Source: an uncultured bacterium
Lineage (GTDB): Bacteria; Eisenbacteria; RBG-16-71-46; CAIMUX01
DNA length: 64,000 nucleotides
Assembly: GCA_964636385.1 (NCBI GenBank)
Contig: CAZWSC010000078.1
Location: 42,874-106,873, forward strand
Reading direction: 5' to 3'
Part shown: positions 3,261 through 55,940 of the stretch, piece after piece
How the letters are laid out: every line of letters begins with the position of its first letter
How positions within the stretch are numbered: the first letter of the stretch is position 1
Position numbers and translations under genes: made by a program
The notes under the pieces: generated by a model
The model's input: the letters and a program-made list of their open reading frames with translations, nothing else
Databases searched by the model: none
Told to the model about the DNA's origin: nothing

Positions 3261-3302
3261 GGCATGCGATTCCTTCCACGGCCCCACACACCGGGCAGTG
3301 TA

Positions 3303-3899
3303 CTACATCCCCGGCGACAGCCCGAGCTCTTCCGGGATCGACTGCATCGCATCCGCCACAAGCATGACGTGTTCGTCGAAACTGACTCCCAGTTCCTCCA
3401 TGCCCTGCGCCACTTCATCCCGGTTTACGCTGCGGGCAAATGCCCTGTCCTTCAGCTTCTTGCGCACAGAGCCCGGCTTCAGCCCCGCCAGCGTCTGTCC
3501 CGGGCGTACCAGGGCTACGGCCATGAGGAATCCGCACAGCTCGTCGACTGCGAACAGCGTCTTCTCGACAAGCCGGTTGCGGGGGACGCCCGTGTACGAG
3601 GCGTGTGAAAGGATCGCCCTGCGGAAGTCCTCGGGGTAGCCGCGTTCGGCAAGGATCTTCCCGCCCATGGTGGGGTGTTCAGGCGCCTGAGGGTGAATTT
3701 CGTAGTCGAAGTCGTGCAGCAGCCCGACGAGCCCCCAGTAGTGCTCGTCCACCTCGGGGTCGCCCGGGTTGTCGGCAGCATACCTGCGGGCGTACGCCCG
3801 CATGGCGGCCTCGACTGCATAGGCATGCCGCCTGAGGCTCTCTGAACTTGTGAACTCGTGCAGAAGCGCCAGGGCTTCGCTCCGGTCGGGTAACGGCAT
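3303..3899 (-). CDS. HD/HDIG-domain metal-dependent phosphohydrolase
   Basis: LHDFDY and H...HD motif spacing typical of the HD superfamily. Start is MPLPDRSE, with GAGGAGG 5 nt upstream. Confidence 0.7.
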   Translation of the reverse strand: MPLPDRSEALALLHEFTSSESLRRHAYAVEAAMRAYARRYAADNPGDPEVDEHYWGLVGLLHDFDYEIHPQAPEHPTMGGKILAERGYPEDFRRAILSHASYTGVPRNRLVEKTLFAVDELCGFLMAVALVRPGQTLAGLKPGSVRKKLKDRAFARSVNRDEVAQGMEELGVSFDEHVMLVADAMQSIPEELGLSPGM

Positions 3900-4010
3900 T
3901 GGAACCTCCTCGTTCCGGACCAACACTCTGAATACTGCCCGGTACGGAGCCTGCACCGCAAGGGCGTGAAGCGGGAACAGGCCGGAGCGAAGGGGAGATG
4001 CAGTCTACGC

Positions 4011-4328
4011 TCAGGTGCAGAGACGCCAGATGCCGTATGCGATCAGGCCAAGTATCGCAAGCGGCAGCAGGACAACCGCAATCCCGATGGCGATGGCAGG
4101 CAGGGCGGCAACCATTATGCCCGCCGTCACAAGACCGAGAACCGGGCCCACCACCAGCCCAAGGACGGCAAGAGCGATCGCTCCGACTGCCACTCCGAGG
4201 ATTGCCCCGAGTATGTGGAACGGAAGCAGGACGATGTGGAGCACGAAACGAAGCAGCACGAGCAGGCCGAGTACCGGCAGGATGAGCAGTGCCGCCACAA
4301 GCAGAAATAGGAGTGAAAACTCGATCAT
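4011..4328 (-). CDS. Small hydrophobic membrane protein (~105 aa, 3-4 TM)
   Basis: The internal ATG (MIEFSLLFLLVAALLIL...) is followed by continuous hydrophobic helices. The upstream part of the long ORF is non-hydrophobic and lacks an RBS. Confidence 0.45.
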   Translation of the reverse strand: MIEFSLLFLLVAALLILPVLGLLVLLRFVLHIVLLPFHILGAILGVAVGAIALAVLGLVVGPVLGLVTAGIMVAALPAIAIGIAVVLLPLAILGLIAYGIWRLCT

Positions 4329-4353
4329 CTCATGGCTCCCGGTTCGATCTTCT

Positions 4354-4382
4354 GATCGGGTGTTCGTCAGATGTGCCCGATC
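4354..4382. repeat. 7-bp inverted repeat (GATCGGG...CCCGATC) with a 15-nt spacer in the 278-bp intergenic region between the small membrane protein gene and the LKR gene
   Basis: Read directly from the sequence. Coordinates approximate to +/-1. Confidence 0.25.
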
Positions 4383-4606
4383 AGATGACCCAGGCGATCC
4401 GATCTGGTACGCGATCCCTGACCGACCACGTACGAGTATACAGACAGCCGGGTTTCCTATTCTACTGCCTGGGCGGGTTTTCATCCCGTCCTGTCTGTCA
4501 CGTCGTCGGCTTTTCACTGAGCTTGACTCCCGACAATCGTGGCTCATAACATAAGGCCTTATTCTCGAACAGGATGCTGGGCAAGTAGCGGGAGGGGGGC
4601 AGTGGA

Positions 4607-5920
4607 ATGGGGAACATCCTCGGGATCCGCAGGGAGGACAAGAACCAGTGGGAACGGCGTGTCCCCCTGATCCCTGCCGATCTGGATATCCTCCAGAGAT
4701 ATAGCGGGTTGCAGTTCCTGGTGCAGAGCTCCCCCATCAGGGTATTCACGGATGGGGACTATCGCGGGAAGGGCCTGGAGGTCGTCGAGGATCTGTCCGC
4801 AGCTTCCATCGTATTGGCTGTCAAGGAGATACCGATAGGGCTGCTGGCCCCGGGCCGCGTCTATGTCTACTTCAGCCACGTCATCAAGGGCCAGAAGTAC
4901 AACATGCCGATGCTGCGGCATCTATTGCAGACAGGCTCCACCCTCATCGATTACGAGCGGATTACCGACGACAACCAGCGCCGCCTCATCTTCTTCAGCC
5001 TGCAGGCCGGCCAGGCCGGGATGATCGAGACACTCTGGGCTGTCGGACAGAGGCTCAGGTCCCGGGGGATGCAGACCCCCCTCTCGGCAGTGCGGCATGC
5101 CTACGAGTACGACGGTCTGTCGACGGCAAAGGAACACCTCGCCGAGATCGGCAGGGAGATCGAGGCGGAGGGCATGGGTGCAGGGCCGCGACCCCTGGTG
5201 ATCGGCATCGCCGGATACGGTAATGTGGCCGCGGGCTGCAGGGAGATTCTGGACTGCCTTCCCGTGCCCGAGGTGGCGGTGGCAGACCTCCCGGGAGCAG
5301 CGGCGGGTGGCCCGGGCGCCCCCCCGATGATCAGGGTCACATTCCGCGAAGAGCACATGGCCGAGCCGCTCGCACCAGGCGCCAGTTTCGAGCTGCAGGA
5401 TTACTACCGGCATCCGGAGAAGTACCGGGGGAGCTTCGAGACACACCTCCCGCATCTGGATGTCCTGATGAGCACGATCTACTGGGATGAGCGGTATCCG
5501 CGCCTGATTACGCGGGAGTGGACGAAGAGACACTACGGACAGGGTGCGGAGGCGCGACTGCAGGTGATCGGGGACATCAGCTGCGACATCGAGGGCGGAG
5601 TGGAACTGACGCTGAAGACTACGATGCCGGATGAGCCATGCTATGTATACGATCCCCGCAAGGACTCCGTGCGCACGGGTGTGGAGGGCACCGGCATTGT
5701 GATCATGGCGGTGGACAACCTGCCATGCGAGCTGCCGAGGGAGGCGTCCACCCACTTCAGCGGGGTTCTGCGCGACATGGTGGCCGATCTCGCGGCTGCC
5801 GACTGGGCGGCCGATTTCGACGCACTCGAACTGCCGGGGCACCTGAAGCGGGCTGTCATCGTGCACAGGGGGCAGCTGACGCCGGATTACGCCTACTTGA
5901 GCAGACATCTGGAGGGTTGA
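4607..5920 (+). CDS. Lysine-ketoglutarate reductase (saccharopine dehydrogenase, L-lysine-forming), AlaDH/PNT-fold
   Basis: N-terminus GIRREDKNQWERRVPLIP matches the LKR domain of eukaryotic AASS (RREDxNxWERRAPL). GGGAGG RBS upstream. Confidence 0.8.
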   Translation: MGNILGIRREDKNQWERRVPLIPADLDILQRYSGLQFLVQSSPIRVFTDGDYRGKGLEVVEDLSAASIVLAVKEIPIGLLAPGRVYVYFSHVIKGQKYNMPMLRHLLQTGSTLIDYERITDDNQRRLIFFSLQAGQAGMIETLWAVGQRLRSRGMQTPLSAVRHAYEYDGLSTAKEHLAEIGREIEAEGMGAGPRPLVIGIAGYGNVAAGCREILDCLPVPEVAVADLPGAAAGGPGAPPMIRVTFREEHMAEPLAPGASFELQDYYRHPEKYRGSFETHLPHLDVLMSTIYWDERYPRLITREWTKRHYGQGAEARLQVIGDISCDIEGGVELTLKTTMPDEPCYVYDPRKDSVRTGVEGTGIVIMAVDNLPCELPREASTHFSGVLRDMVADLAAADWAADFDALELPGHLKRAVIVHRGQLTPDYAYLSRHLEG

Positions 5921-5997
5921 TTCGCAAGCGGACGGCTTTACGGCCCGTACCGCGCACTTGAAGGCCGGGAACGGCAGCGTCTCTACGGGAGGATCGC

Positions 5998-18819: not shown

Positions 18820-19896
18820 CTATCTGTAGATCGTCTTCAGCCTGCTCCATGATGTTTCGACCTGGCTGAACTCGCAGGGCGACGGTATGCAGGAGACTCC
18901 CTCTCCCATGAAGACTCCCCCGGCGTCCAGGCACTCGCCCCACTTCAGCAGTCGGCAATCCAGACCGAGGCAGCAGGCTCCTTCTCCGGGGACGCACGGA
19001 TTCGGCCAGCAGACAGTGTTGTCCCCATGGTAGACGTAACCGAATGCCTCGCAAGTGGCCCTGGTCTGGATGATGCATCGTCCCTGGGGTGTACAGCAGG
19101 CACCGGTGATGGTGTGCCCCCCGCAGGGATTGTAACCGTCGCGGCCGAAGCCGAGTTTGCCAAGACCTTCGACACGATCGACGACCACCGGGATGGAGTC
19201 ATCACCAAAAACCGGCCAGCCCTGGCTTGGATGCTCTGCTATCTCCACGGTATTGCCGGAGTACACATAGCTGGCGAACCACAAAACCTCGTTGATCTGC
19301 GAAGTGAGAGGATCGTCGACCCATACGATGCCTACGCCGGTGCCGTCTCGCGGCCAGCCGTTGCTCTCGAGGACGAACGGAGCATTCGTTCCCCATGCAA
19401 AGGGTTCGACAAGTGGGCTGGAGTACCTCATTCCGAAGGTCACTGCCATAACCGTGGGCCAGGAGAATCCGTCGAACACGGCAAGCACGTAGTAGACGAT
19501 TTCGTCCACCTCCCCTGGCGTACCATCGATGCGGGTTATGGCGTGTTCACAGTCGTAGAGCTCGGCATAACTGCTGTAATCGATTCCGCTGGTGTAGATG
19601 AGAGACGGGTTGGCGTGAAGGATGAGCATTCCGCCTTCGTTGACCCCGCCGGAGGCATGAGGACTCCACGCGCAAAGAGCGATGAGCAGTGAAATGGATA
19701 GATCCCGAATCCGTTTGAACCGACAGCAGTCGGATGGCCTTCGTTCGGATGGGGTGGTTGTAACGGTTTCCGGCGGGCAGGGCTGCGGTTGGGGGGTACC
19801 TGCCCGGTGTCGGGCAGAGAGGCACGGGCCCGCCGGGTGTCGATACGGTATGACAGAACTGCCGCCCAAGGATGTGGAGTGGTGTTGACTGCGCAA
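18820..19896 (-). CDS. Cys-rich secreted or membrane-anchored protein with two tandem ~40-aa six-Cys repeats. Start codon uncertain
   Basis: Hydrophobic signal-like segment RIRDLSISLLIALCAWSPHASGG at residues ~65-88, with no in-frame ATG/GTG/TTG just before it. C-terminal repeats NPCGGHTITGACCTPQGRC...CWPNPC and NPCVPGEGACCLGLDC...CIPSPC. Confidence 0.5.
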   Translation of the reverse strand: MRSQHHSTSLGGSSVIPYRHPAGPCLSARHRAGTPQPQPCPPETVTTTPSERRPSDCCRFKRIRDLSISLLIALCAWSPHASGGVNEGGMLILHANPSLIYTSGIDYSSYAELYDCEHAITRIDGTPGEVDEIVYYVLAVFDGFSWPTVMAVTFGMRYSSPLVEPFAWGTNAPFVLESNGWPRDGTGVGIVWVDDPLTSQINEVLWFASYVYSGNTVEIAEHPSQGWPVFGDDSIPVVVDRVEGLGKLGFGRDGYNPCGGHTITGACCTPQGRCIIQTRATCEAFGYVYHGDNTVCWPNPCVPGEGACCLGLDCRLLKWGECLDAGGVFMGEGVSCIPSPCEFSQVETSWSRLKTIYR

Positions 19897-20981: not shown

Positions 20982-21093
20982 CTGAACCTCCCGATGCGCC
21001 CCCGGCAGCCGTGCATGGCAGGACCGGTGAGCCGGGGCAGAAAGACGGGGAACGGAAAAGCCCGCCCCCCGTCACATGTGTCATTCGATTTGG

Positions 21094-21603
21094 CTAGCGG
21101 ACGGCAAGTTCGACGAGCTTCGCGATCTTCTCGTACCGGCGGAGGCTGATGTTCGGGTTGTACTTCAGAAGGAGTTCCCGAAGATCGGCACAGAATGTCG
21201 AGTGGCTTGCCTGGCGAACCACCCTCTTGCTCCGCTTGCGGGCAACCTTGCGGGGCCTGGACAACCTTGCGACCGGCGCGGCCGCAGCGACCGGCTTGCG
21301 AACCGCCTTGCGCGCGACCTTCCTCACGGCCTTCTTCGCCTTGCGGGCCACCTTGCGTACGGCCTTCTTCCGGGCCGGACCGGCAACCACGATCCTCGCA
21401 CCCTTGCGCCGGCCACGGCTGATACCGGCCTTCCTCGCCTTGTTGTTTACTGTGGGGAGCGAGACGCCGTGCTTGTGGGCGATCTCGCGATAGCTGAGCT
21501 TGCCTGCCCTGATGTCGGCTATGATCGCCTTTTCCCGCTTCAGCAGGTCGATCTTTCCGGTACTTCTGGTCCGAGTGGTCCTTCTCGCCTTTGATGCCTT
21601 CAT
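21094..21603 (-). CDS. Small DNA-binding protein: N-terminal helix-turn-helix followed by histone H1-like KKAVRKVARKA repeats
   Basis: LSYREIAHKHGVSLPTVNNKARKAG looks like an HTH. Then ARKKAVRKVARKAKKAVRKVARKAVRKPVAAAAP. GGAAGGAG sits 8 nt before the ATG at 21603. Confidence 0.55.
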   Translation of the reverse strand: MKASKARRTTRTRSTGKIDLLKREKAIIADIRAGKLSYREIAHKHGVSLPTVNNKARKAGISRGRRKGARIVVAGPARKKAVRKVARKAKKAVRKVARKAVRKPVAAAAPVARLSRPRKVARKRSKRVVRQASHSTFCADLRELLLKYNPNISLRRYEKIAKLVELAVR

Positions 21604-22102
21604 GGCTGTCACTCCTTCCGGTTCCTTGCACGACCGCGCAACCAAGTCAACTTCTGCATCCTCCAGGGGACTCGGTGTCTCTCCGTCAACCAGGTGTCAG
21701 CCGGGCTGACAGGCGCGCCGTGCCGGTGCCTTCCGAGGCATGGAGGATGCACACGACATTGGATGCAGTATGGAAAGACTCCGCATGTGTGTCAACCTGC
21801 TTATAACAGATTTCGAGCAATAACCGGCATGGATCGTGTGCATTGGCGTTGGAAATTGATAATCGAACGTAGTGGTGATGGTGAGCCGGATGTCCCGCAT
21901 ATCGGCCTTGTACTTCACACATGATTCCTGCCCATTCGACCGGTACAGGTGTGTGTTGCCTTCGCAGTGTTCGGCAGGTGCGTGGAAGGGTCTGAACCTG
22001 CGTTCCGCTCTGCGCATGGAAATGCGATGACACGGAGGTGCCGTCTGAGTACTCTTCCTGGAATGCCCGGTTGGTCCCGGTGCGGACAGGAGGTGTAGCC
22101 TT

Positions 22103-23899
22103 ATGATCTCCGGGGGGAGTCACCCGCAGCAAGAGGAGAGGGCCGTTCAACTGGAGGTTGATTTCACTGCCGAAGTGAAGAGTCCGGAAGCCATGGCTGC
22201 TGCCGCGCGCGCCGGTGCGGCCAGAAGGAAGGAGCAGAAACGCGCGCCTTCCGGCAAAGCCACCCCGGATCCAACATCGACCAGAGGCGACTCCGCCACT
22301 GTCCGCGGCAGGGGAAGGCGTCGTGCCCGGGATTCAAAACCGTTGTCGGCCAAGGAGATGGCTTCCAGGCAGCGGGATATCTCGGTATCGGAGTTTTTTT
22401 CCAAAAACCGCCATCTCCTGGGCTTTGACAACCCCTCCAAGGCGCTCCTCACAACAGTGAAGGAAGCTGTGGACAACTCCCTGGACGCCTGCGAGGAAGC
22501 AGGTATTCTTCCGGACCTGCAGGTGGAGATCAGGCGCGTGGCAGAGGATCGTTACGCTGTTGCTGTACAGGACAACGGCCCGGGAATAGTGCGCAGCCAG
22601 GTGCCCAGGATATTCGGGAGGTTGCTGTACGGTTCGAAGTTCCACAGCCTGAAACAGAGCCGGGGGCAGCAGGGGATCGGCATCTCCGCCGCAGGCATGT
22701 ACGGTCTGATGACAACCGGCAAGCCGATACGCGTGATCTCGAGAACCGCCGCGAAAAGCCCTGCACACCTTTTCGAGCTGGTCATCGACACGGTCAGGAA
22801 CGAGCCGGAGCTGCTGGTGGATACGGAGGTGGAGTGGGATCAGGATCACGGCACGCGCGTCGAGATCACCCTCCAGGGGACGTACAAGAGGGGCCGCCAT
22901 TCGGTGGATGGCTATCTCAAGCAGATCGCCATTGCCAATCCGCACGCCCGGATCATCTACCATCCGCCGGAGCCGGAGGAGGGGCCGGTTCTGCTGGACA
23001 GGGTTTCCTCAGAGCTGCCGCCGGAACCGATCGAGATCAAACCGCATCCCCACGGTGTTGAGCTCGGACTGCTCCTGAAGATGCTGAAGGAGACCCGGGA
23101 GAGGCATCTCGCGCAGTTCCTCAACAGGGAGTTTTCCAGAGTGAGCCCCAGGGCGGCGGGGGAGATGCTCGAAGCGTCCGCCCTGTCCGCCAGGACGCGG
23201 CCGTCAAGGCTGTCAAACGGGGATGCGGAGCGTCTGCACGGGGCGATGACGCAGGCGAAGATCATGGCCCCGCCGGCGGACTGCGTCTCCCCGATCGGAG
23301 AGGAGCTTCTCTTCAGGGCCCTGAAGCAGGATGTGGAGACGGACTTCTACACATCCGTGACTCGTCCTCCCTCCGTGTACAGGGGCAATCCATTCCAGAT
23401 TGAGGTCGGCATGGCCTACGGTGGGCGCCTGCCGCAGGATGAAACCATAACGCTGTACCGATATGCAAACCGGGTTCCACTGCAGTATCAGCAGTCGGCC
23501 TGTGCGATTACAAAGGCAGTTCTGAGCATCGACTGGAAGAAGTACCACCTGTCCCAGGCCAGGGGAGCCCTCCCCGCAGGGCCGCTCATCCTGGTTGTGC
23601 ACATCGCATCCGTATGGGTGCCGTTCACATCCGAATCGAAGGAGGCGGTGGCGCACTATCCCGAGATCATACGCGAGATCAGGCTCGCTCTGCAGGAGGC
23701 CGGAAGGCGCGTCGGGGCGCACATAGGCAGGGTCAGGCGGGCGAAGGAAGAGGGCAAGAAGCGGTCGTACATACAGAAGTACATTCCCCACATCGGTTAT
23801 GCGCTGCAGGAGATCCTGGGGCTCAAGGATCCCGAGAGGGACAGCACGATCGAGATCCTGACCGACGTGTTGGAGAAGAGCCGGACTCAGCCGGGGTAA
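22103..23899 (+). CDS. top6B: DNA topoisomerase VI subunit B (GHKL/Bergerat ATPase) with a ~85-aa basic N-terminal extension
   Basis: SVSEFFSKNRHLLGFDNPSKALLTTVKEAVDNSLDA, KPHPHGVE and YRGNPFQIEVGMAYGG...LYRYANRVPLQY align with archaeal Top6B. AGGAGG sits 9 nt before the ATG at 22103. The internal ATG at 22358 has no spacer after its SD. Confidence 0.85.
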   Translation: MISGGSHPQQEERAVQLEVDFTAEVKSPEAMAAAARAGAARRKEQKRAPSGKATPDPTSTRGDSATVRGRGRRRARDSKPLSAKEMASRQRDISVSEFFSKNRHLLGFDNPSKALLTTVKEAVDNSLDACEEAGILPDLQVEIRRVAEDRYAVAVQDNGPGIVRSQVPRIFGRLLYGSKFHSLKQSRGQQGIGISAAGMYGLMTTGKPIRVISRTAAKSPAHLFELVIDTVRNEPELLVDTEVEWDQDHGTRVEITLQGTYKRGRHSVDGYLKQIAIANPHARIIYHPPEPEEGPVLLDRVSSELPPEPIEIKPHPHGVELGLLLKMLKETRERHLAQFLNREFSRVSPRAAGEMLEASALSARTRPSRLSNGDAERLHGAMTQAKIMAPPADCVSPIGEELLFRALKQDVETDFYTSVTRPPSVYRGNPFQIEVGMAYGGRLPQDETITLYRYANRVPLQYQQSACAITKAVLSIDWKKYHLSQARGALPAGPLILVVHIASVWVPFTSESKEAVAHYPEIIREIRLALQEAGRRVGAHIGRVRRAKEEGKKRSYIQKYIPHIGYALQEILGLKDPERDSTIEILTDVLEKSRTQPG

Positions 23900-23968
23900 T
23901 AGCACGGCCGTCGGGGAACGCCCCTGGTTCCCTGGCGGAATCCGGGCAGGGACGACAGGAGCATCGGG

Positions 23969-25114
23969 ATGGCAGCTGGACGCAGGAATCGCAAGGACAT
24001 CAGGCAGAAGAACGAGGAGAAGGACAGGCAGACTCTGTCCCTAATCTCCGGGACCGCGGGGGAGATACACACCCGCGTGCTCAAGAGGCGCAAGCCGGAC
24101 CTGCGGTTCCCGGTTCGTGCGTTGTCGAATGTGAGCTACTCGGAGAAGAACGGATACCTGGAGATAGGGAAGGCGAAGAAGGTACGGACACTCACCGTGA
24201 ACACCGTGAAAGCGTTTGCCCAGACGCTGAGAATGATGTCCCTCTCGAAGAGTCTGATCGAGACCAACGACTTCGCGACCAAGAGGGACGCGTACTACCA
24301 GTCGAAGAACTGGGGCGAGGCGATGTTCCAGGATCAGCCCGAGTCGGATACCGTCATGGACGACATCGAGGCCCTCTTCTCTGTTCACAACGTCAGCCGC
24401 GAGCAGCTTCGCTTCATACCGGACGAGCACGGCGGAGCCGTTGCGGGCGAGCTGGTGGTCCTGGATCCCGATCTGGAATCCGGACGCGTCGAACGCATCG
24501 ACTGCACACGATTCGGCTCGGGCGCCTATTCCATCCCGGGTTCCGTGGAACAACTATCCTTCGAGACGGATGCCGGGTTCATCCTGGCCATTGAGACGGG
24601 CGGTATGTTCCAGAGGCTGCAGAATCACAAGTTCTGGGCGAAAGCCAACTGCATCCTGGTGTCGATGGGGGGCGTTCCCACCCGCGCCACCAGGCGGTTC
24701 ATCCGCAAGCTTTCGGACGAGAGGAAGATCCCGGTCTACGCGTTCGTTGACTGCGATCCCTACGGGATCTCCAACATCTACCGCACGCTCAAGGTGGGCA
24801 GCGGCAATGCCGCCCACATCAACCGCTTCTTCTGTGTTCCACAGGCCAGGTTCCTCGGGGTCACGCCGCGCGACATCGTGGAGTACAAGCTCCCGACCCA
24901 TCCCCTGAAGGAGGTGGACGTGAAGCGTGCGAAGGATGCGATAAGAAACGATCCGTTCTTCAGGCACCACAAGCCGTGGGTGAAGGCGATGAGCGAACTC
25001 CTGAAGATGGGTGTTCGCGCCGAACAGCAGGCCCTTGCGAAGTGGGGACTGAACTACGTGATCGAGGAGTACCTGCCGGCGAAGCTGGCAAATCCCAGGC
25101 TGTTCCTGCCCTAG
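23969..25114 (+). CDS. top6A: DNA topoisomerase VI subunit A (Spo11-like, Toprim)
   Basis: Toprim acidic motif YAFVDCDPYGISNIY. Spo11/Top6A-like winged-helix region. AGGAG RBS. Immediately downstream of top6B. Confidence 0.85.
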   Translation: MAAGRRNRKDIRQKNEEKDRQTLSLISGTAGEIHTRVLKRRKPDLRFPVRALSNVSYSEKNGYLEIGKAKKVRTLTVNTVKAFAQTLRMMSLSKSLIETNDFATKRDAYYQSKNWGEAMFQDQPESDTVMDDIEALFSVHNVSREQLRFIPDEHGGAVAGELVVLDPDLESGRVERIDCTRFGSGAYSIPGSVEQLSFETDAGFILAIETGGMFQRLQNHKFWAKANCILVSMGGVPTRATRRFIRKLSDERKIPVYAFVDCDPYGISNIYRTLKVGSGNAAHINRFFCVPQARFLGVTPRDIVEYKLPTHPLKEVDVKRAKDAIRNDPFFRHHKPWVKAMSELLKMGVRAEQQALAKWGLNYVIEEYLPAKLANPRLFLP

Positions 25115-25200
25115 CCGGTCTGGTCCGTCCGGGCCGGCCCTCACCTCCGGGCGGCTATGAGGATTGCGCCTGTCGCCCGGCACAAGCCGAAGGAGGGGCC

Positions 25201-26247
25201 ATGCCGTCGCGCTCTCTTACACTGCTGATGCTGTCCGCGATCGTACTCGCGGTACTGGCCCTGTCGGTCTGGCAGAGGGCTGCCGAGGATGCAGGCGCAC
25301 CGGTGCAGCGGACCATCACCCCGATCATAATGGGAACAACGTGCCGGCTTACAGTTGTCGGACGCCCCGATCTCGTCGATTCGGCCCTGGAGAAGGCCTT
25401 TGCCGAGTTGGCGGAGGTCAACCGCCTGGCTTCGACCTATGACCCTCAAAGTCCCCTGAGCCTGTTCAACGCGGCACCGGCGGATGCCGGGTTCCTGCTG
25501 GATCCTCCGCTTCTCGATGTCATGCGCGTATCGCTGGAATTCTCGGTGAGGACGGGAGGGGCCTTCGACATCACGATGAGGCCCCTCGGATTGCTCTGGA
25601 GGGAATCCGGAAAGGCGGGACTGCTGCCATCCGATGCCTCGATCGACTCCGCGCTTGCCCTGGTTGGACACGAAAGCCTGGTGCTGGGCGACTCCACGGC
25701 GACCAGGACCATTGAGGGGATGCAGGTGTCGCTGGACGCCATCATCAAGGGATATGCCGTGGATCAGGCGTTGAAGGCGATGCAGGATGCGGGAATGTCG
25801 GCCGGGCTGGTGGAGGTCGGCGGCGACCTCGCCTGTTTCGGAGCCCCGCCCGGTGCGCAGGGGTGGAGGATCGGCGTGCAGGACCCATGGGCGGAGAGGA
25901 ACATCGGGGTGCTGCAGGTTCCTCCGGAGGGGATCCCCTCCATCGGCATCTGCACCTCCGGCAACTACCGCAGATTCGTGGAGATCGAAGGCGTCCGCTA
26001 CAGCCACATCGTGGATCCCCGCACAGGTCGGCCTGCTGATGCCATACCGGGCGTAACGGTTATCGCACCCGACGCAATGACGGCCGATGCGTGGGCCACC
26101 GCTCTATCGGTTCTGTCAGTCGGGGAAGGGCGCCTGCTTGTGGAAGCCGAGCCGGGAGTGGAGGCGCTCTGGATCGGAGGGAGCGAGTCGGATCCCCGGA
26201 TGGAGGAGAGCCGGGGGTTTTCCGGGTATTGGGCGAACAGCCGGTAG
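25201..26247 (+). CDS. apbE: FAD:protein FMN transferase (ApbE family), exported
   Basis: Signal/TM MPSRSLTLLMLSAIVLAVLALS. ApbE-like regions (GAFDITMRPLGL; IIKGYAVDQAL; ICTSGNYRRF). Confidence 0.75.
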   Translation: MPSRSLTLLMLSAIVLAVLALSVWQRAAEDAGAPVQRTITPIIMGTTCRLTVVGRPDLVDSALEKAFAELAEVNRLASTYDPQSPLSLFNAAPADAGFLLDPPLLDVMRVSLEFSVRTGGAFDITMRPLGLLWRESGKAGLLPSDASIDSALALVGHESLVLGDSTATRTIEGMQVSLDAIIKGYAVDQALKAMQDAGMSAGLVEVGGDLACFGAPPGAQGWRIGVQDPWAERNIGVLQVPPEGIPSIGICTSGNYRRFVEIEGVRYSHIVDPRTGRPADAIPGVTVIAPDAMTADAWATALSVLSVGEGRLLVEAEPGVEALWIGGSESDPRMEESRGFSGYWANSR

Positions 26248-26347
26248 GTGGGAGCGATGGATCTCGCGTGCGGATACTGCGGTCTCGGGCAGTACCATCC
26301 GGGAGTCCCCGGCTGCGGCACCGGGGATGCGCGCAGATCATGCGGAC

Positions 26348-28012
26348 TCAGCCGGCCCCGCTGCTGCCCCCGCCTCCGGCACCGCCGGCGCCTCCCGCTG
26401 CCGCACTGCCTCCGGCAGTAACCGTTGATGTGACCACGGCTAGGGTGGCGGCCGTGTCCCACGATCCGTCTTCCAGGCGGGGCAGCCACACCGGAGCCTG
26501 AATGCCCCAACGGTTGGCGGCCCGGGTCCATTTCTTCGCGCAGCCAAAGGTCACGGCGTAGGGGAGCCAGGCAACATACCGGTCCTCGTCAAGGGGAGTC
26601 TTCCCGCCGGCAGCCTGCTTCAGGTACTCGCCGAACCCCTTCCACTGGCGGGCGCGGTCCCGTCCTACGGCTGTCCAGAGCGGGAAGGCCTGGGAGGCGA
26701 TCCCGAAGGCCGCCGCCGGCAGCAGGAGTGCTGCGGGAATGGCGAACCCCGCAGCCCCTGCCCATCCGATGAGCAGGATGTTCAGCAGCACCAGGACGAG
26801 GCCGGCAAGGAGCAGTATCACTCCGCAAGTGGCCAGCAGGCGTCGGGCTTCCCGTCCCGCCGGGTCCAGGTCCCCCCTCCGTTCCAGCTCTCCCAGCAGC
26901 GCCTTTCGGCAGACCGGCTGCGACTTGAGCAGGCGTTTCTGCGCTTTGGACCACTTGATCGACTCGCCGGCCCCGGCCTGCCCGAAGATCGAATCCAGGA
27001 GGACCGACTCCCATTCCTCCGCAGGCGGAACGCCGAGCCTCACGAGGTCCGGGGGCTTTCCCTTCTTCTTCGGGCCCTTGCTTTCCTTTGCGAAGCGGAC
27101 GGATCCCGCACGTCCAAGGTCAAAAAGAATCGCCACGATCTGGCTTGTCCACGCATTCCCGTGAACCAGGGATCCTGACAGGGCTGCCGGAAGCTTCTCC
27201 GGCGGCTGCGGGATGATGGGAGGCTTTCCCCCGAGGGATGCTGATGCGCCCGGGCTGAGCCGCGCTTTCATCCGGCGCCACATCTGTACAAGCATGGCAA
27301 GCCCGCCCAGGAAGATCGCGCCCGCAACAGCCAGGATGTAGGGCGTCCTGGCGCCCCTTGCCTTCTCGGCCAGCTGCCACGATGCCGTGGAAGCGGCAGG
27401 CAGAAGATCCGCCCAGTCTGCCCGTACGCGCAGGGTCGTCTCGGGCGGCAACCGCCGGGGGCCGATCAGGAAACCCTCGTCCACGGGCTGGATGGGGGCT
27501 GCAGAAGGCTCTGTGGCGATCTCGACCGGTGCGGGAACACGCGGACCGCGCATCAGCAGGGCATCCGCGTGATCTATGCGGTACGGCCTGTCATAGGGGA
27601 AGAGATTCCAGCGCAGTACCGAGCGTCCGTCCCTGATTTCTGCGGCTCCCAGCGCCTGGTATTCCAGAACGAAGGTGCGCGTTGTGTCGCGGATCGGTTC
27701 GAAGCGCCACATAACCTCGAGGAGACGGCGGCGCTGCTTGAGCTGGGGTGATTCCGATGCGCTGATGAACTCGATCCCGTCCGTGCGATCGGTCGGTATG
27801 CCGCGAAAGAAGTAGGTGAACTCTCCGCCCTCGAAGCGGATCCTGACGGTTTCGCGAACGTGCAGGTCGCCGCTGCCGGCGATTGTGATCTCGGTCCTGT
27901 AGTGCTCGGCGAAGTAGGTCTTGTCAGCCCCATCGGTCGGGGCCGTGCAGAGGCAGAGGGCCAGGAGGAGCAGCGCCGTGGAAAACCGGCGGATGAGGAT
28001 GCGCGTTATCAT
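26348..28012 (-). CDS. DUF2207-family membrane protein with a Gly/Ser/Ala-rich C-terminal tail
   Basis: N-terminal signal, large extracytoplasmic domain, TM helices, YVAWLPYAVTFG motif, GGSAAAGGAGGAGGGGSSGAG tail. Confidence 0.6.
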   Translation of the reverse strand: MITRILIRRFSTALLLLALCLCTAPTDGADKTYFAEHYRTEITIAGSGDLHVRETVRIRFEGGEFTYFFRGIPTDRTDGIEFISASESPQLKQRRRLLEVMWRFEPIRDTTRTFVLEYQALGAAEIRDGRSVLRWNLFPYDRPYRIDHADALLMRGPRVPAPVEIATEPSAAPIQPVDEGFLIGPRRLPPETTLRVRADWADLLPAASTASWQLAEKARGARTPYILAVAGAIFLGGLAMLVQMWRRMKARLSPGASASLGGKPPIIPQPPEKLPAALSGSLVHGNAWTSQIVAILFDLGRAGSVRFAKESKGPKKKGKPPDLVRLGVPPAEEWESVLLDSIFGQAGAGESIKWSKAQKRLLKSQPVCRKALLGELERRGDLDPAGREARRLLATCGVILLLAGLVLVLLNILLIGWAGAAGFAIPAALLLPAAAFGIASQAFPLWTAVGRDRARQWKGFGEYLKQAAGGKTPLDEDRYVAWLPYAVTFGCAKKWTRAANRWGIQAPVWLPRLEDGSWDTAATLAVVTSTVTAGGSAAAGGAGGAGGGGSSGAG

Positions 28013-52026: not shown

Positions 52027-54642
52027 TTACCGCACCCTGAGCAGCCTCACACTCTCCGCCTTGTCCCCTGCCGTCAACCGCGCGAAGTAGACGCCGGTGG
52101 CGACAGAGTTGCCGGCGGCATCCCGTCCGTCCCATGACACCTGATGCGTACCGGCGGGCAGTTCGCCCTCGGAGAGGACGCGAATCTGCCGCCCTGTGGC
52201 GTCATACACCACAACCGAGGCGTCCCGGGCCTCCGGCAGCCCGAAGCGCAGGGTCGTGGATGTGGAGAAAGGATTCGGCTGAGCGGCTTCCAGGCTGACT
52301 ACGGCAGGAACTCCACCGCGGTCCGGCACGCTGCTGGACTCGAACACCGTCAGCCGGATCTGGAGGTGGTCATTCTGGCGCGGGTTGTAGGAGTTCTTCA
52401 GGGTGCCCCGGTAGTTGCCGTCCTCCAGGCCGTGCGAGGAGAAGGTCAGCTGGATGTCCATGCTCTCGCCTTCCGGGATGGAGCCGCTTGAGGGCTCGAA
52501 CGAGAACCAGGAGTCGCTCCCGAAGGTGATGAAGCTGAGGTCGAACTCGAGAACCGATCCGGGATCACCGACGTTGGTGATGGTCAGTGTATCGTGGTGA
52601 ACCGTCATCCCCGGAATGGTGATCTCGAAGACCTCCTCGTTGTACATGGCCGAAGGAACCAGGTCATAGTCGACCAGAATCGTGCTCAGGTAGGGAACTC
52701 TGTTGTAGGCGGTCACGACGAGGTCGATCTCCTCGCCCTCCTGCAGTTCGCCCGTGATCTCGATGACTGCATTGCCGCCGGCATCGGTGAAGCCGGAGCC
52801 GAGGTACATCCCGTTGTAGCTGAGTGCGCAGAGCGCGTCGGCGATGCCGGGTACCTGCAGCGAGTAGGTGGAGGCCTCCGGATCGACGAAGTCTTCGTAG
52901 ACGACCGTCATCGGCTCGGCCGGCTTGTTGCGGAAGCGCAGGGCCGGGTCGCCGAAAAGAGTCCATGCCCGGAACTCGCTTATGCCGGAGCTTCCGTAGA
53001 TATCCATCATCCAGGAGGAACCGTTGAAGCAGATGGAGCCGTAGGTGCGGGCGACATCATCGTAGATCAGCCGGTTGAACTCGATCTGGCCGGCCATCGG
53101 CGGATTCCAGGACATGTTGATGGTGGACGCGTACATGCCTGTCGCGCCCGTGGGCTGGCCGTTGTGGGAGGCGCGCAGCCAGGTCTCGGCGAAACAGGTT
53201 GAATTGGCGAAGTTGCCGTTAACGCAGGCCACGCTGCAGATAATCGGCAGCATGTGTGTGTTTTGAAGGGCGTTTACGTGCGAGTTCGAGAAGCCGGTGG
53301 TCGACCAGCTGGTCGTACTGCCGTGGCCGGTGTAGTTGATGATGGAACGACCGTCGTGCAGAGCGGCCGTTACCTGGCTGGCGGTCGCGCCATATCCGTA
53401 GAACTGATCGATGTGAGTGTATCCGTAGGCCAGCAGGTGGGAGCGGATGAGGTCGACGTGCTGGTGATCGTACAGGCCACCATGGCCCGGTCCCTCGGTC
53501 GAGGCGATCCCGGTGCCCTTCGGGTACCAGTCGTTGCCGGCCAGGAGCGGCTCCTTCTCGTAGTTGACGGTGCGCAGGACCTGGGTCTGCACGTGCGAGA
53601 CGTTCTCGGAACTGAAACGGCCGACGAAGATGTCGGGGTAGCTGTCGCTGCCGGCAAGCAGTGAATAGCTTGGATCCGAGGCAACCGAGCCGACATACAT
53701 CGGCGGGATCTGAGGGGCATCCCCGACCAGCAGCACAAACCCGAGGCGCGGGTCACTCGACTGATCATAGAGATTCTGGATGTAGGCCTTGATCTGATTG
53801 GAGGTGGAGCCGATCTGAGACTTGAGCACCAGTTCGGTGGGGATACCCATCTGGTTACGCCACTCCACCAGAGGCTGCATGGCGCTTTCGAAGCCGTCGA
53901 AGCAGACGATCAGCATCTTGCCGACCTCGGACACCAGCTGATAACGGAGGTTCGCGCCGTAGTTAAGAAAGCGCTCCCGGTAGATGTCGGCGAACTCGGG
54001 CATGACGCTCACGAGGTCGGAGGCGCGCTCGAGTGCGTTGATCCTGGCAGGTCCGCCGGCAACGAGCTCGACCAGCATGTGCGTGCAGACATCCAGGGTG
54101 CCGGTCGACGGCGTGTAGCGGATCGGGTTGAACACGACCGTCTGGCCCCGGAAGTCGCGCAGGATGTATGGATCGCGGGTGAAGGCTTCATCCGCGGGGA
54201 ATGTCCCGGACGAGTTGTAGAACTCGCCGAAAGCATAGGGCACGGTCTCGGGATCGACAGAGCGGAGCAGGTTCCCCTTCGAGGGCACAGGGATGATGCC
54301 GTCAAAGGTGGTGTACTCCGTCGATATGACCCGCAGCTCCATCTCCCGATCCTCAGGGATAATCACACTCCCCGCCGCCAGGGGCAGCTCGGGGAGTCCC
54401 TCCTCGAGGTGCAGGCCCTGGCCAGGCAGGCTGATCCGGGCATACGTGGCTCCATCGATGACAACGTCGGTCATCTCGAATCCGTCCACCCGCAACTCGA
54501 GCACTATCCGGTCAGGAGTAGATTCGACCAATGACACGACTGCCCCGTCCCGCCCTCCGAGGCTGACCCAGGTCGCGAGCGCCGGAGCGGCCGCGATGAG
54601 AATGCCGAGGACCAGGATGATCGAGGTCGAAAGCTTCTTCAT
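52027..54642 (-). CDS. Secreted peptidase C25 (gingipain-like) with a T9SS C-terminal sorting domain
   Basis: Signal MKKLSTSIILVLGILIAAAPALA. Gingipain propeptide-like N-domain. Catalytic YTGHGS (His) and ICSVACVNGNF (Cys). CTD PNPFSTSTTLRFGLPE...VSWDGRDAAGNSVATGVYFARL...LLRVR. Confidence 0.8.
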   Translation of the reverse strand: MKKLSTSIILVLGILIAAAPALATWVSLGGRDGAVVSLVESTPDRIVLELRVDGFEMTDVVIDGATYARISLPGQGLHLEEGLPELPLAAGSVIIPEDREMELRVISTEYTTFDGIIPVPSKGNLLRSVDPETVPYAFGEFYNSSGTFPADEAFTRDPYILRDFRGQTVVFNPIRYTPSTGTLDVCTHMLVELVAGGPARINALERASDLVSVMPEFADIYRERFLNYGANLRYQLVSEVGKMLIVCFDGFESAMQPLVEWRNQMGIPTELVLKSQIGSTSNQIKAYIQNLYDQSSDPRLGFVLLVGDAPQIPPMYVGSVASDPSYSLLAGSDSYPDIFVGRFSSENVSHVQTQVLRTVNYEKEPLLAGNDWYPKGTGIASTEGPGHGGLYDHQHVDLIRSHLLAYGYTHIDQFYGYGATASQVTAALHDGRSIINYTGHGSTTSWSTTGFSNSHVNALQNTHMLPIICSVACVNGNFANSTCFAETWLRASHNGQPTGATGMYASTINMSWNPPMAGQIEFNRLIYDDVARTYGSICFNGSSWMMDIYGSSGISEFRAWTLFGDPALRFRNKPAEPMTVVYEDFVDPEASTYSLQVPGIADALCALSYNGMYLGSGFTDAGGNAVIEITGELQEGEEIDLVVTAYNRVPYLSTILVDYDLVPSAMYNEEVFEITIPGMTVHHDTLTITNVGDPGSVLEFDLSFITFGSDSWFSFEPSSGSIPEGESMDIQLTFSSHGLEDGNYRGTLKNSYNPRQNDHLQIRLTVFESSSVPDRGGVPAVVSLEAAQPNPFSTSTTLRFGLPEARDASVVVYDATGRQIRVLSEGELPAGTHQVSWDGRDAAGNSVATGVYFARLTAGDKAESVRLLRVR

Positions 54643-55874: not shown

Positions 55875-55940
55875 TGTCGCGAAACCTCTCGTTCAGATGT
55901 ACAGCAGTCTGATCGGATCTCTGGTTCTGCATCCTGAGGA

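Follow-up and report, generated by a model that had tools for sequence, protein, structure and literature searches.

Analysis of a 64 kb stretch of bacterial DNA (hereafter, the window) revealed a pair of genes encoding the two subunits of an archaeal-type DNA topoisomerase VI (Topo VI). The original prediction had placed an ORF pair at 22103-25114, and exactly these boundaries were recovered, with top6B at 22103..23899 (+) and top6A at 23969..25114 (+). The two genes are adjacent on the same strand, the top6B stop being separated from the top6A start by 69 nt. The features of the locus are as follows:

22088..22093, + strand: Shine-Dalgarno (SD) sequence AGGAGG, 9 nt before the top6B ATG (22103), read from the sequence
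22103..23899, + strand: top6B, DNA topoisomerase VI subunit B, 598 aa including the N-terminal extension (ORF, ATG start)
22103..22192, + strand: acidic N-terminal tip, residues 1-30, pI 4.4, carrying the motif (composition, conservation)
22148..22165, + strand: QLEVDF, residues 16-21, putative beta-clamp-binding short linear motif (conservation, enrichment)
22193..22348, + strand: basic linker, predicted to be disordered, residues 31-82, 15 K+R and 4 D+E, pI 12.0 (composition, pLDDT)
22349..22873, + strand: N-terminal strap and GHKL/Bergerat ATPase domain, residues 83-257 (Pfam HATPase_c, residue mapping)
23270..23758, + strand: transducer domain, residues 390-552 (Pfam PF09239, 1e-59)
23969..25114, + strand: top6A, DNA topoisomerase VI subunit A, 381 aa (ORF, ATG; three Pfam domains above cut-offs)
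24209..24388, + strand: winged-helix/5Y-CAP domain, residues 81-140 (Pfam TP6A_N PF04406, 1.9e-15)
24578..25087, + strand: Toprim domain, residues 204-373 (Pfam PF21180, 3.4e-59)

The bacterial setting is apparent from the remainder of the window, which encodes sigma-54 activators, two-component systems, FeoAB and T9SS-type sorting domains, and whose closest named relatives are Candidatus Eisenbacteria. Chromosomal housekeeping genes (trpS, fumarase and apbE) surround the topo VI pair, the gene context is syntenic across related genomes, and 63 of 80 related loci likewise have top6A after top6B; searches among phages and bacterial plasmids yielded no relatives of the pair. A divergent HTH + H1-like gene adjoins top6B and is conserved in the clade of the window, being syntenic in 5 of the 80 loci, all from the closest clade. 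Topo VI had been expected to be sporadic in bacteria; its bacterial occurrence is confirmed, but its abundance was understated, given that relatives are encoded in at least 592 stretches of the species-genome collection, the best 80 of which include 78 with a bacterial label. Annotation of the window, which covered all but a few stretches (about 3300-5980 and 55940-59370), brought up neither gyrase nor Topo IV genes, in line with the original prediction; this observation is uninformative, because gyrase has been found in every Topo VI-bearing bacterium surveyed, and a sample of 64 kb does not speak for the whole genome. The same annotation contains no dnaN.

Top6B scores well above the cut-offs of two equivalog models, NCBIfam NF003218 (692.2 bits versus 274) and TIGR01052 (550.7 bits versus 380.7), and its residues 83-578 align with the Methanosarcina mazei protein (PDB 2q2e_B; E 3e-159, 534 bits). 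The strap described at the Top6B N-terminus (PMC13040014) is followed by the ATPase domain, recognized by Pfam HATPase_c over residues 113-257 (1.8e-10), in which the N box of the Bergerat fold is represented by E121 and N125 (E44 and N48 of M. mazei in the 2q2e_B alignment), the G1 box by DNGPGI (157-162) and the G2 box by GQQGIG (188-193). The alignment runs unbroken through the H2TH region, and the transducer domain contains both a WKxY motif (W478-K-K-Y481) and the switch lysine, K513, within SESKEA, two elements described previously (PMC5922973, PMC7671362). A DNA-sensing loop of the KGRR type is also present: K262-R-G-R265 aligns with V185-K186-G-R188 of M. mazei and is one residue shorter, R189 being absent. 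The sequence blocks quoted in the original prediction were located in Top6B (KPHPHG, 313-318; GNPFQIEVG, 428-436) and in Top6A (FVDCDPYG, 259-266).

Top6A is most similar to its M. jannaschii counterpart (PDB 1d3y_A; E 5e-110, 371 bits). Its Tyr110 (codon 24296-24298) aligns with Y103, named as the catalytic tyrosine of the M. jannaschii 5Y-CAP domain (PMC7671362), whereas E209 and D261-x-D263 of the Toprim domain correspond to E197, D249 and D251, and the T2BI box (R/KxExxA/S) reads RAEQQA (350-355). Loss of the catalytic tyrosine or of the Toprim acidic residues, which would have spoken against the assignment, is thus not observed, and, as judged from these alignments, all catalytic and DNA-sensing residues are present in both subunits. 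None of the six NCBIfam PRK04342.1-x sub-models of Top6A was matched above its cut-off (best, NF003337, 452.9 bits versus 675); we read these sub-models as clade-specific and the bacterial Top6A as an apparently distinct sub-clade that still lies inside Top6A. The Pfam, NCBIfam and PDB matches, whose top entries are all Topo VI rather than MORC/GHKL proteins, and the bacterial setting together uphold the identification of an archaeal-type Top6B-Top6A pair in a bacterium. Judged by homology, the pair almost certainly constitutes a functional A2B2 type IIB topoisomerase, which most likely performs the decatenase job of Topo IV in this lineage.

The feature that sets this Top6B apart is its N-terminus. 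Homology to archaeal Top6B starts at residue 83 (residue 6 of M. mazei 2q2e_B), so that the extension is 82 residues long; the original prediction of a basic extension of about 85 residues was close in length and correct in character, with the Arg/Lys-rich stretch located within residues 40-79, but it missed the conserved motif at the tip. A good ribosome-binding site is found at the long start alone, as had been proposed: AGGAGG precedes the first ATG, whereas the internal Met31 lacks an SD and at Met86 an AAGGAG directly abuts the ATG, resulting in wrong spacing. Comparison with orthologs points to the same start. An 88%-identical ortholog (L086) retains the SD as GGAGG, the upstream frame is open and motif-bearing in dozens of lineages, and two homologs with seemingly ‘short’ gene calls proved to have mis-called starts that hid the tips QVSMDF and GPLF. 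Across codons 14-22 (AVQLEVDFT), L086 differs by six synonymous and no non-synonymous changes; on the strength of this synonymous-only pattern and of the SD at the long start, the extension is, at the sequence level, translated.

The extension as a whole is basic (pI 11.1; 17 K+R versus 10 D+E), and its two parts evolve differently: amino-acid identity to L086 amounts to 80% in the tip and 42% in the linker, compared with 93% in the core. By this comparison, the basic linker is fast-evolving and the tip motif is under purifying selection. Among homologs, the linker varies widely in sequence and length, with 24-138 residues separating the motif from the core, while its K/R content stays at 22%-24%. 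AlphaFold predicts the extension to be disordered (pLDDT 37-53 for residues 1-82, below 50 for residues 1-26 and 39-53 for the linker), and the single-chain model does not dock it on the Top6B core. The negative controls, comprising the archaeal PDB sequences as well as two archaeal loci, have neither extension nor motif.

In an alignment of 18 sequences, Q16 and F21 alone are invariant across the extension once its limits, M1 and A83, are set aside; in an alignment of 72, both are at least 90% conserved. Neither subunit encoded in the window contains a Q-x-x-hydrophobic-x-F match besides QLEVDF. The motif accordingly lies in a terminal segment of predicted disorder and is conserved amid drifting flanks; in most loci, it is found 1-17 residues from the start codon. 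Clamp motifs in general are short and degenerate. The motif class Q-x-x-hydrophobic-(x)-F, specified in advance, occurs in 58 of 115 bacterial Top6B extensions versus 0.29 in shuffled extensions (maximum 3 in 1000) and, when counted by genome loci, in 23 of 65 versus 0.38, numbers that overstate independence because the sequences are related by descent. If the motif is held to its strict form as published, Q-phi-x-[LM]-(x)-[FL] (PMC11139829), 12-13 of the 115 extensions (0.28 shuffled) and 8-12 of 63 loci (0.83 shuffled) qualify, with the same caveat of common descent. The variants QxSFxF and xLFD were defined post hoc. QLEVDF itself falls outside the strict definition, having Val at position 4, where Leu or Met is required; in the clade of the window, this position is occupied by V in 38 sequences and by L in 7. 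Orthologs nevertheless present strict matches at the position of QLEVDF, namely, QIRLDF, QIALDF, QLDMDF and the textbook clamp motifs QLDLF (L064), QLGLF (L036; the Pol II motif), QLVLGL (L029; the Pol IV motif) and QMDLF; QASLF and QPSLF, likewise textbook motifs, also occur there in relatives. The motif is spread across several phyla. In about 40% of the bacterial loci, a motif can be recognised on neither Top6B nor Top6A, and some of them have a basic tail and nothing else, or hardly any extension; the clamp-type module is therefore not obligatory.

In one clade of eight species, Top6B lacks the motif, and it is the Top6A N-terminus that carries QxELxF or QASLF together with a basic linker (8 of 44 versus 0.14 in shuffles). 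No locus was found in which both subunits bear the motif. The shift from B to A is confined to a single clade and hence counts as one event, which renders the associated statistic (Fisher p=0.04) weak.

Collectively, these observations suggest that the enzyme encoded in the window is a replisome-tethered decatenase docking on the beta-clamp (DnaN), a reading that, taken whole and with the partner included, we favour by a narrow margin over its negation. On its sequence, QLEVDF would work like a clamp motif and is a putative rather than an established clamp binder, and we infer DnaN as the partner, DNA binding by the linker and the decatenase role. Topo VI would relax supercoils and unlink replicated chromosomes by ATP-driven strand passage, while each B subunit would extend a disordered arm of 82 residues from its ATP-gate strap. 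The acidic distal tip would contact DnaN through QLEVDF, a putative motif of the hexapeptide class, and the proximal Arg/Lys-rich linker of 50 residues may bind DNA non-specifically and act as a flexible tether. The two arms of a heterotetramer could occupy both pockets of one clamp dimer, and the enzyme would thereby be concentrated on freshly replicated, clamp-marked DNA, the site of precatenanes. Acquisition of the arm would postdate the passage of the genes from archaea to bacteria. Extended to bacterial Topo VI at large, the proposal of a clamp-tethered decatenase whose arm was gained after transfer, mostly on Top6B and in one clade on Top6A, seems to us an even call. According to published surveys, most Topo VI-bearing bacteria are devoid of Topo IV. 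We found no report of a clamp motif on bacterial Topo VI in the literature, and no bacterial topoisomerase is listed among the published clamp partners in the clamp reviews consulted.

The arm could, in principle, serve other ends. It might be no more than a histone-H1-like DNA-binding tail that increases the affinity of the enzyme for DNA, the tip of which docks back on Topo VI itself (the partner ATPase or Top6A) and, like a lengthened strap, regulates closure of the ATP gate. Very basic, motif-free tails do exist in five relatives (L015, L019, L023, L055 and L065), the strap into which the extension runs is exchanged with the partner ATPase in archaeal structures, and such a tail might compensate for the archaeal C-terminal Ig-like domain, which, being present in M. 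mazei, is absent from bacterial Top6B. We consider this explanation unlikely: AlphaFold leaves the tip undocked on the B core, an element that docked on its own enzyme would hardly be predicted to turn up at the N-terminus of the other subunit with its sequence class unchanged, and the variants QLDLF, QLGLF and QLVLGL fit the clamp motif precisely rather than forming an arbitrary hydrophobic patch. Comparably unlikely, in our estimation, is recruitment of Topo VI by the tip to a different hub, such as SMC/ScpAB or a MukBEF-like condensin, in the way that MukB recruits Topo IV in E. coli, or else ParB, SSB or a nucleoid protein. It is indeed MukBEF that positions E. coli Topo IV, with an influence of SeqA and not of the clamp (PMC11253446). 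Also in favour are the divergent HTH + H1-like gene conserved beside top6B in the clade of the window and the fact that QLEVDF is not a strict clamp motif; yet that neighbour is syntenic in only 5 of the 80 loci, whereas the motif covers several phyla. Moreover, no bacterial hub apart from the clamp is known to us to recognise peptides of the Q-x-x-hydrophobic-(x)-F type.

Two further readings deny either the extension or the enzyme and are far less probable. A non-functional extension, with Met86 as the true start or with neutral low-complexity drift, could be argued from its ambiguous GC3 of 0.66, intermediate between 0.60 in intergenic DNA and 0.79 in the core, and from gene callers that begin some homologs at the core Met. 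It is highly improbable, however, and largely refuted by the evidence at hand, that is, the six synonymous and zero non-synonymous changes over the motif, the conserved SD at the long start and the open, motif-bearing upstream frame in dozens of lineages, the short calls being mis-calls. Least credible of all is the view that the pair represents a mobile-element Topo VIII, Mini-A or, in the manner of Wadjet JetD, Gabija or MORC, a Toprim nuclease and GHKL partner serving in defence. Top6A does match PADLOC JetD, but at 21-22 bits, as expected from the common Toprim fold, and Top6B has no match in PADLOC; with the top matches all being Topo VI, the defence nuclease/MORC assignment was rejected. 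Topo VIII and Mini-A were likewise rejected, since two separate full-length subunits pass the Topo VI equivalog models, as was a mobile-element origin, given the housekeeping, syntenic chromosomal context.

Should the plain reading alone hold, the locus adds one more correctly annotated bacterial Topo VI. The motif-tipped arm, however, suggests how a borrowed enzyme links to the bacterial replication machinery, and a clamp-type peptide on a flexible basic arm offers a concrete mechanism for where and when bacterial Topo VI acts. If clamp docking is true, this would be the first bacterial type II topoisomerase brought to replicated DNA directly via the beta-clamp, a topoisomerase would join the bacterial clamp interactome and the enzyme would exemplify the wiring of a foreign replication-associated protein into the replisome of a new host. 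In practical terms, gene callers cut the extension in some genomes, and annotation and expression of bacterial Topo VI should take the long start.

Comparison with archaeal Topo VI (M. mazei 2Q2E, M. jannaschii 1D3Y) shows the same two subunits and domain order and near end-to-end alignment. The window Top6B differs in having the 82-residue arm, absent from the archaeal proteins, in lacking the C-terminal Ig-like domain of M. mazei Top6B and in reading KRGR, one residue shorter, in place of the archaeal KGRR loop. Bacterial Topo VI itself is already known and routinely annotated by public pipelines; the new part is the 82-residue extension, with its acidic, motif-bearing tip and basic linker. 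The latest survey covers 17 families, attributes bacterial Topo VI to horizontal transfer from archaea and mentions neither an N-terminal extension nor a clamp motif; it terms the presence of the enzyme in bacteria ‘puzzling’ and proposes only replacement of Topo IV (Allen & Maxwell 2024, PMC11302465). One bacterial cluster in that work lies near Methanococcales, consistent with the window Top6A being closest to a Methanococcales structure. Our analysis goes further in characterising the extension and in finding the enzyme in many uncultured lineages, with at least 592 matching stretches in the species-genome collection.

Among other topoisomerases, Topo IV (ParC/ParE), a type II decatenase that works in the wake of replication forks, presumably fills the corresponding role, but it has an unrelated type IIA cleavage core and, in E. 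coli, is placed by MukBEF and SeqA without a clamp motif. In Topo VIII/Mini-A, the B and A modules are fused in one polypeptide, or A occurs alone, whereas in the window they are split over two genes, whose chromosomal context is conserved and for which phages and bacterial plasmids gave no relatives. Topo VIII/Mini-A is also of type IIB and has the Bergerat fold, 5Y-CAP and Toprim in common with Topo VI; Topo VIII combines these with H2TH, the transducer and a C-terminal region of its own and is encoded by plasmids and integrated elements (Takahashi et al., PMC7671362).

With respect to the motif, E. coli Hda and the alpha and epsilon subunits of Pol III likewise have a short peptide of the form Q-x-x-hydrophobic-x-[FL] embedded in disordered sequence; QLSLPL in the disordered N-terminus of Hda is a precedent for an N-terminal clamp motif (PMC11139829), and QVELEF of Pol III alpha and QTSMAF of epsilon share the hexapeptide form of QLEVDF, which differs in having Val at position 4 and in that its clamp binding is putative. 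A direct parallel is NucS/EndoMS, an enzyme of archaeal origin that moved to bacteria. The archaeal form binds PCNA via a PIP peptide, and, in a pull-down with P. abyssi NucS, the Topo VI subunits co-purified with PCNA and RFC. Whereas the NucS motif is C-terminal and its clamp binding was shown experimentally, that of Topo VI is N-terminal or on the other subunit and its binding is deduced; actinobacterial NucS, with the beta-clamp peptide [EK][LY][TR]LF, nonetheless is an earlier case of an enzyme being connected to the bacterial clamp after its transfer, and the parallel illustrates how horizontally acquired archaeal DNA enzymes may become integrated.

As proposed in the original prediction, whose observation and interpretation proved correct overall, the two adjacent open reading frames, separated by 69 nt, almost certainly encode subunits B (Top6B) and A (Top6A) of a DNA topoisomerase VI (Topo VI). 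In Top6B, Pfam identifies the Topo VI B transducer domain (1e-59) and HATPase_c; the protein passes both curated full-length equivalog models (NF003218, 692 bits vs a cut-off of 274; TIGR01052, 551 vs 381) and aligns over residues 83-578 with Top6B of Methanosarcina mazei (structure 2q2e_B, 3e-159). Top6A, predicted to be of the Spo11/Toprim type, is hit by each of the three Pfam domain models for Top6A/Spo11 and aligns with the structure of M. jannaschii Top6A, 1d3y (5e-110). It falls under the cut-off in all six narrow NCBIfam Top6A sub-models (best 453 vs 675), which we read as sub-clade divergence of a probable genuine member of the Top6A family. Alignment to the archaeal structures revealed complete sets of catalytic residues in both subunits, including the catalytic tyrosine and the Toprim acidic residues; the roles of the catalytic and DNA-sensing residues have been described previously (PMC5922973; PMC7671362; PMC13040014).

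Topo VI genes and diagnostic residues in the window
22103..23899, + strand: Top6B ORF, 598 aa
23969..25114, + strand: Top6A ORF, 381 aa
Top6B E121, N125: ATPase residues, equivalent to M. mazei E44, N48
Top6B DNGPGI (157-162) and GQQGIG: ATPase motifs
Top6B KRGR: counterpart of the KGRR loop
Top6B 478-481: WKKY
Top6B K513: switch lysine
Top6A Y110: catalytic tyrosine, equivalent to M. jannaschii Y103
Top6A E209, D261-x-D263: Toprim metal residues
Top6A RAEQQA: T2BI box

Given that Topo VI has already been surveyed in bacteria and publicly annotated, the enzyme itself is not new. The survey found Topo VI in 17 bacterial families, its bearers including Anaeromyxobacter, Nitrospira and Bdellovibrio, and traced the bacterial enzyme to archaea by way of two or more transfers; gyrase was found in every Topo VI-bearing bacterium and Topo IV was absent from most, leading the authors to propose that Topo VI is the decatenase (Allen and Maxwell, 2024; PMC11302465). 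Our scan of one genome per species yielded at least 592 stretches that encode a relative, the best 80 of which represent Eisenbacteria, Myxococcota, Acidobacteriota, Planctomycetota, Fibrobacterota, Gemmatimonadota, Krumholzibacteriia and Elusimicrobiota, along with two Nanoarchaeota MAGs; public sources already label these relatives Topo VI B. The Nanoarchaeota contigs (L068 and L081, DPANN-labelled but possibly mis-binned) encode Top6B 58% identical to the bacterial type, without the N-terminal extension, which fits the published bacterial cluster near DPANN archaea. In 12 acidobacterial and planctomycete loci (L010, L015, L022, L035, L050, L051, L053, L055, L065, L076, L080 and L083), no top6A was found within 2.9-4 kb downstream of top6B; thus, unlike in the window, the subunit genes are unlinked in some bacterial lineages.

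The window lies within a JGI metagenome contig of 134.6 kb (3300001533, MLSed_10000028), and the pair is neighboured by genes of ordinary bacterial housekeeping and regulation (trpS, fumarase, apbE, ROK kinase, sigma-54 activators, histidine kinases, FeoAB, TldD/PmbA and RNase H). Among named homologs, proteins from Candidatus Eisenbacteria MAGs come closest and form the basis for the affiliation of the organism, and in a rough tree the window adjoins an Eisenbacteria MAG. Two large secreted proteases, a subtilase S8 with CarboxypepD_reg (59372-62278, - strand) and a gingipain-like Peptidase_C25 (52027-54642, - strand), end in C-terminal domains of the FlgD_ig/CHU_C type, as is typical of cargo of type IX secretion; this fits an FCB-group bacterium. 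Another ORF (18820-19896, - strand; 18820-19629 in the JGI call) has no Pfam match and a Cys-rich C-terminal half with repeated CC/CxxxC. Neither gyrase, Topo IV nor dnaN was seen in the annotated parts of the window, as had been noted for gyrase and Topo IV, which in a 64 kb sample is uninformative for the genome. Scans across the whole window found no Rfam family and no tRNA, and a promoter and terminator scan of 21000-26400 gave nothing above shuffles.

Divergent to top6B lies a small-protein gene (21094-21645, - strand; 21094-21603 in the JGI call), the product of which combines a sigma-70-region-4-like HTH, AIIADIRAGKLSYREIAHKHGVSLPTVNNKARKAGI, matched in Pfam only by a sub-threshold Sigma70_r4_2, with histone-H1-like Lys/Arg/Ala repeats, KKAVRKVARKAKKAVRKVARKAVRK, and could be a nucleoid-associated protein or a local regulator. 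The order trpS, HTH/H1-like gene and divergent top6B-top6A is repeated in two related loci (L084, L085), and the gene adjoins top6B in L004-L007 and L026 and in none other of the best 80 of at least 592 loci. The intergenic region (21646-22102; 457 nt, G+C 0.57 vs about 0.63) is about 67% identical to that of an 88% ortholog and has no Rfam match; it holds a single promoter-like site, of the sigma-70 type (21795-21767, - strand), no more than shuffles yield.

Archaeal Top6B homology begins at residue 83, leaving 82 extra N-terminal residues, the arm, which bears out the predicted basic extension, with the basic part at residues 31-82. The prediction that a good ribosome-binding site exists only at the long start also held: a Shine-Dalgarno sequence, AGGAGG (22088-22093), is located 9 nt ahead of the long ATG, whereas the internal starts are poor, Met31 lacking such a sequence and that of Met86 abutting the ATG. 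As GC3 (extension 0.66, core 0.79, intergenic 0.60) is distorted by the Arg/Ala/Gly/Pro-rich composition of the extension and hence ambiguous, translation was assessed by synonymous/non-synonymous comparison with an 88%-identical ortholog (L086). Codons 14-22 (AVQLEVDFT) differ by six synonymous and no amino-acid changes, and the Shine-Dalgarno sequence is conserved, supporting the long start; identity amounts to 80% in the first 30 residues, 42% in the linker and 93% in the core. Among close homologs, 115 of 120 have at least 34 residues ahead of ISVSEFF, a conserved block at the core start, corresponding to an extension of about 25 or more. Both ‘short’ homologs that we checked had mis-called starts, with upstream in-frame ATGs each preceded by a Shine-Dalgarno sequence; the public gene calls of homologs P0067 and P0013 begin at the core Met, losing about 80 extension residues (L084 2261-2500; L085 2264-2500), and the tips recovered from mis-called homologs read ...QQVSMDF... 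and ...GAGPLF.... Start mis-annotation thus appears to be recurrent in bacterial Top6B. The extension is real and translated, and the arm is very probably a functional, selected module.

Modules of the Top6B arm
Residues 1-30: acidic tip, pI 4.4, holding QLEVDF at 16-21
Residues 31-82: basic linker, 15 K+R vs 4 D+E, pI 12.0

An AlphaFold model built on a 72-sequence alignment has a well-folded core (pLDDT about 90) and predicts that the arm is disordered (residues 1-82, pLDDT 37-53), with the tip undocked from the core. In archaeal structures, the extreme N-terminus of Top6B is a ‘strap’ swapped onto the ATPase of the partner (PMC13040014), so that the bacterial arm would project from the top of the ATP gate. 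In L019, L023, L055, L065 and L074, Top6B and some Top6A N-termini bear extensions that are extremely Lys-rich (38-50 K+R, AKKKxAKK-type repeats); the hydrophobic tip motif is absent from them, which suggests a tip-independent function of the basic tail, presumably DNA binding.

Within the extension, conservation is limited to Q16 and F21 of the tip peptide, EERAVQLEVDFTAEV (motif positions Q16, V19 and F21), which are invariant among 18 aligned homologs and at least 90% conserved among 72; the tip motif is under purifying selection. Tip versions read from upstream frames in the DNA of 80 genomes (the best 80 of at least 592) are clade-specific variations on one theme near the N-terminus, with the QxSFxF and xLFD classes recognised post hoc.

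Tip versions by lineage
QLEV[DSP]F, QIRLDF: Eisenbacteria-like lineages
Q[EG][ST]F[AGRV]F (e.g. QESFAF, QETFRF): Myxococcota
QMDLF, QASLF, QPSLF: Acidobacteriota
QLDLF, QMDLF, QLGFSF, [ST]LFD: Planctomycetota
QLGLF, QLVLGL: Myxococcales

[quoted passage not shown] Relative to composition-preserving shuffles, which overstate independence because the sequences share ancestry, pre-specified patterns were found in 58/115 metagenome extensions (shuffle mean 0.29, maximum 3 in 1000) and 23/65 genome loci (mean 0.38), and the strict published definition in 12-13/115 (mean 0.28) and 8-12/63 (mean 0.83), respectively. The distance between the motif and the nearest start codon is 1-17 residues in most loci, and a K/R-rich linker of 24-138 residues connects the motif to the core. 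The extension is absent from two archaeal loci and from the archaeal PDB proteins.

Eight loci (L032, L041, L044, L048, L049, L057, L060 and L063; labelled Fibrobacteraceae, Krumholzibacteriia, Gemmatimonadales or unclassified) have little or no Top6B extension, and their Top6A N-termini instead read QQELDF, QGELGF, QGELSF, QSELGF, QPELAF or QASLF ahead of a Lys/Ala/Pro-rich linker (8/44 vs 0.14 in shuffles). No locus carries the motif on both subunits (Fisher test, p=0.04); however, the eight form one clade in a neighbour-joining tree, so that they represent one relocation event rather than eight independent observations and the p-value is to be downgraded accordingly. The occurrence of one motif class with a basic tether on either subunit speaks for an external partner that recruits the holoenzyme, over an intramolecular role at the B-subunit ATPase. 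About 40% of loci have the motif on neither subunit, some retaining the basic tail alone, and no compensating motif was found at the C-termini of Top6B or Top6A in the motif-less lineages.

Several alternative readings were weighed. A PIP box (Qxx[ILM]xx[FY][FY]) was ruled out, as QLEVDFTA lacks aromatics at positions 7-8, and so was an SSB-tail-like peptide (DDDIPF), because SSB-type tails act at a free C-terminus and the window motif is N-terminal. The HTH/H1-like neighbour was considered as a candidate partner and set aside, its synteny being confined to the closest clade. A defence system was dismissed, PADLOC giving only JetD matches of about 22 bits, at the Toprim level, as was a plasmid or phage origin: Top6B relatives on plasmids were restricted to haloarchaeal megaplasmids, and no relative was found in phages or bacterial plasmids. 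We lean slightly towards DnaN as the arm's partner. Position 4 of QLEVDF is Val, where the published definition calls for Leu or Met, and Val is the majority residue in the clade of the window (38 V, 7 L); the peptide may be a deliberately weak clamp motif, like epsilon QTSMAF with its clamp KD of about 210 micromolar (PMC11139829), or no clamp binder.

We show that the Topo VI encoded in the window is complete and that its arm is translated, predicted to be disordered and built of two modules. [quoted passage not shown] Topo VI would thereby be concentrated on newly replicated DNA, clearing precatenanes in the role of Topo IV. What is new is the N-terminal arm and its docking peptide of the clamp type, which is widespread in bacterial Topo VI and missing in the archaeal relatives; no paper that we found mentions it. 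Two reviews of clamp partners include eukaryotic Topo I and Topo II-alpha for PCNA, and no bacterial topoisomerase for the beta-clamp. Two precedents support a clamp-tether mechanism: NucS, a protein of archaeal origin, carries a PIP peptide in archaea and a beta-clamp peptide in Actinobacteria (PMC8228993), and a pull-down with Pyrococcus NucS recovered the two Topo VI subunits together with PCNA and RFC.
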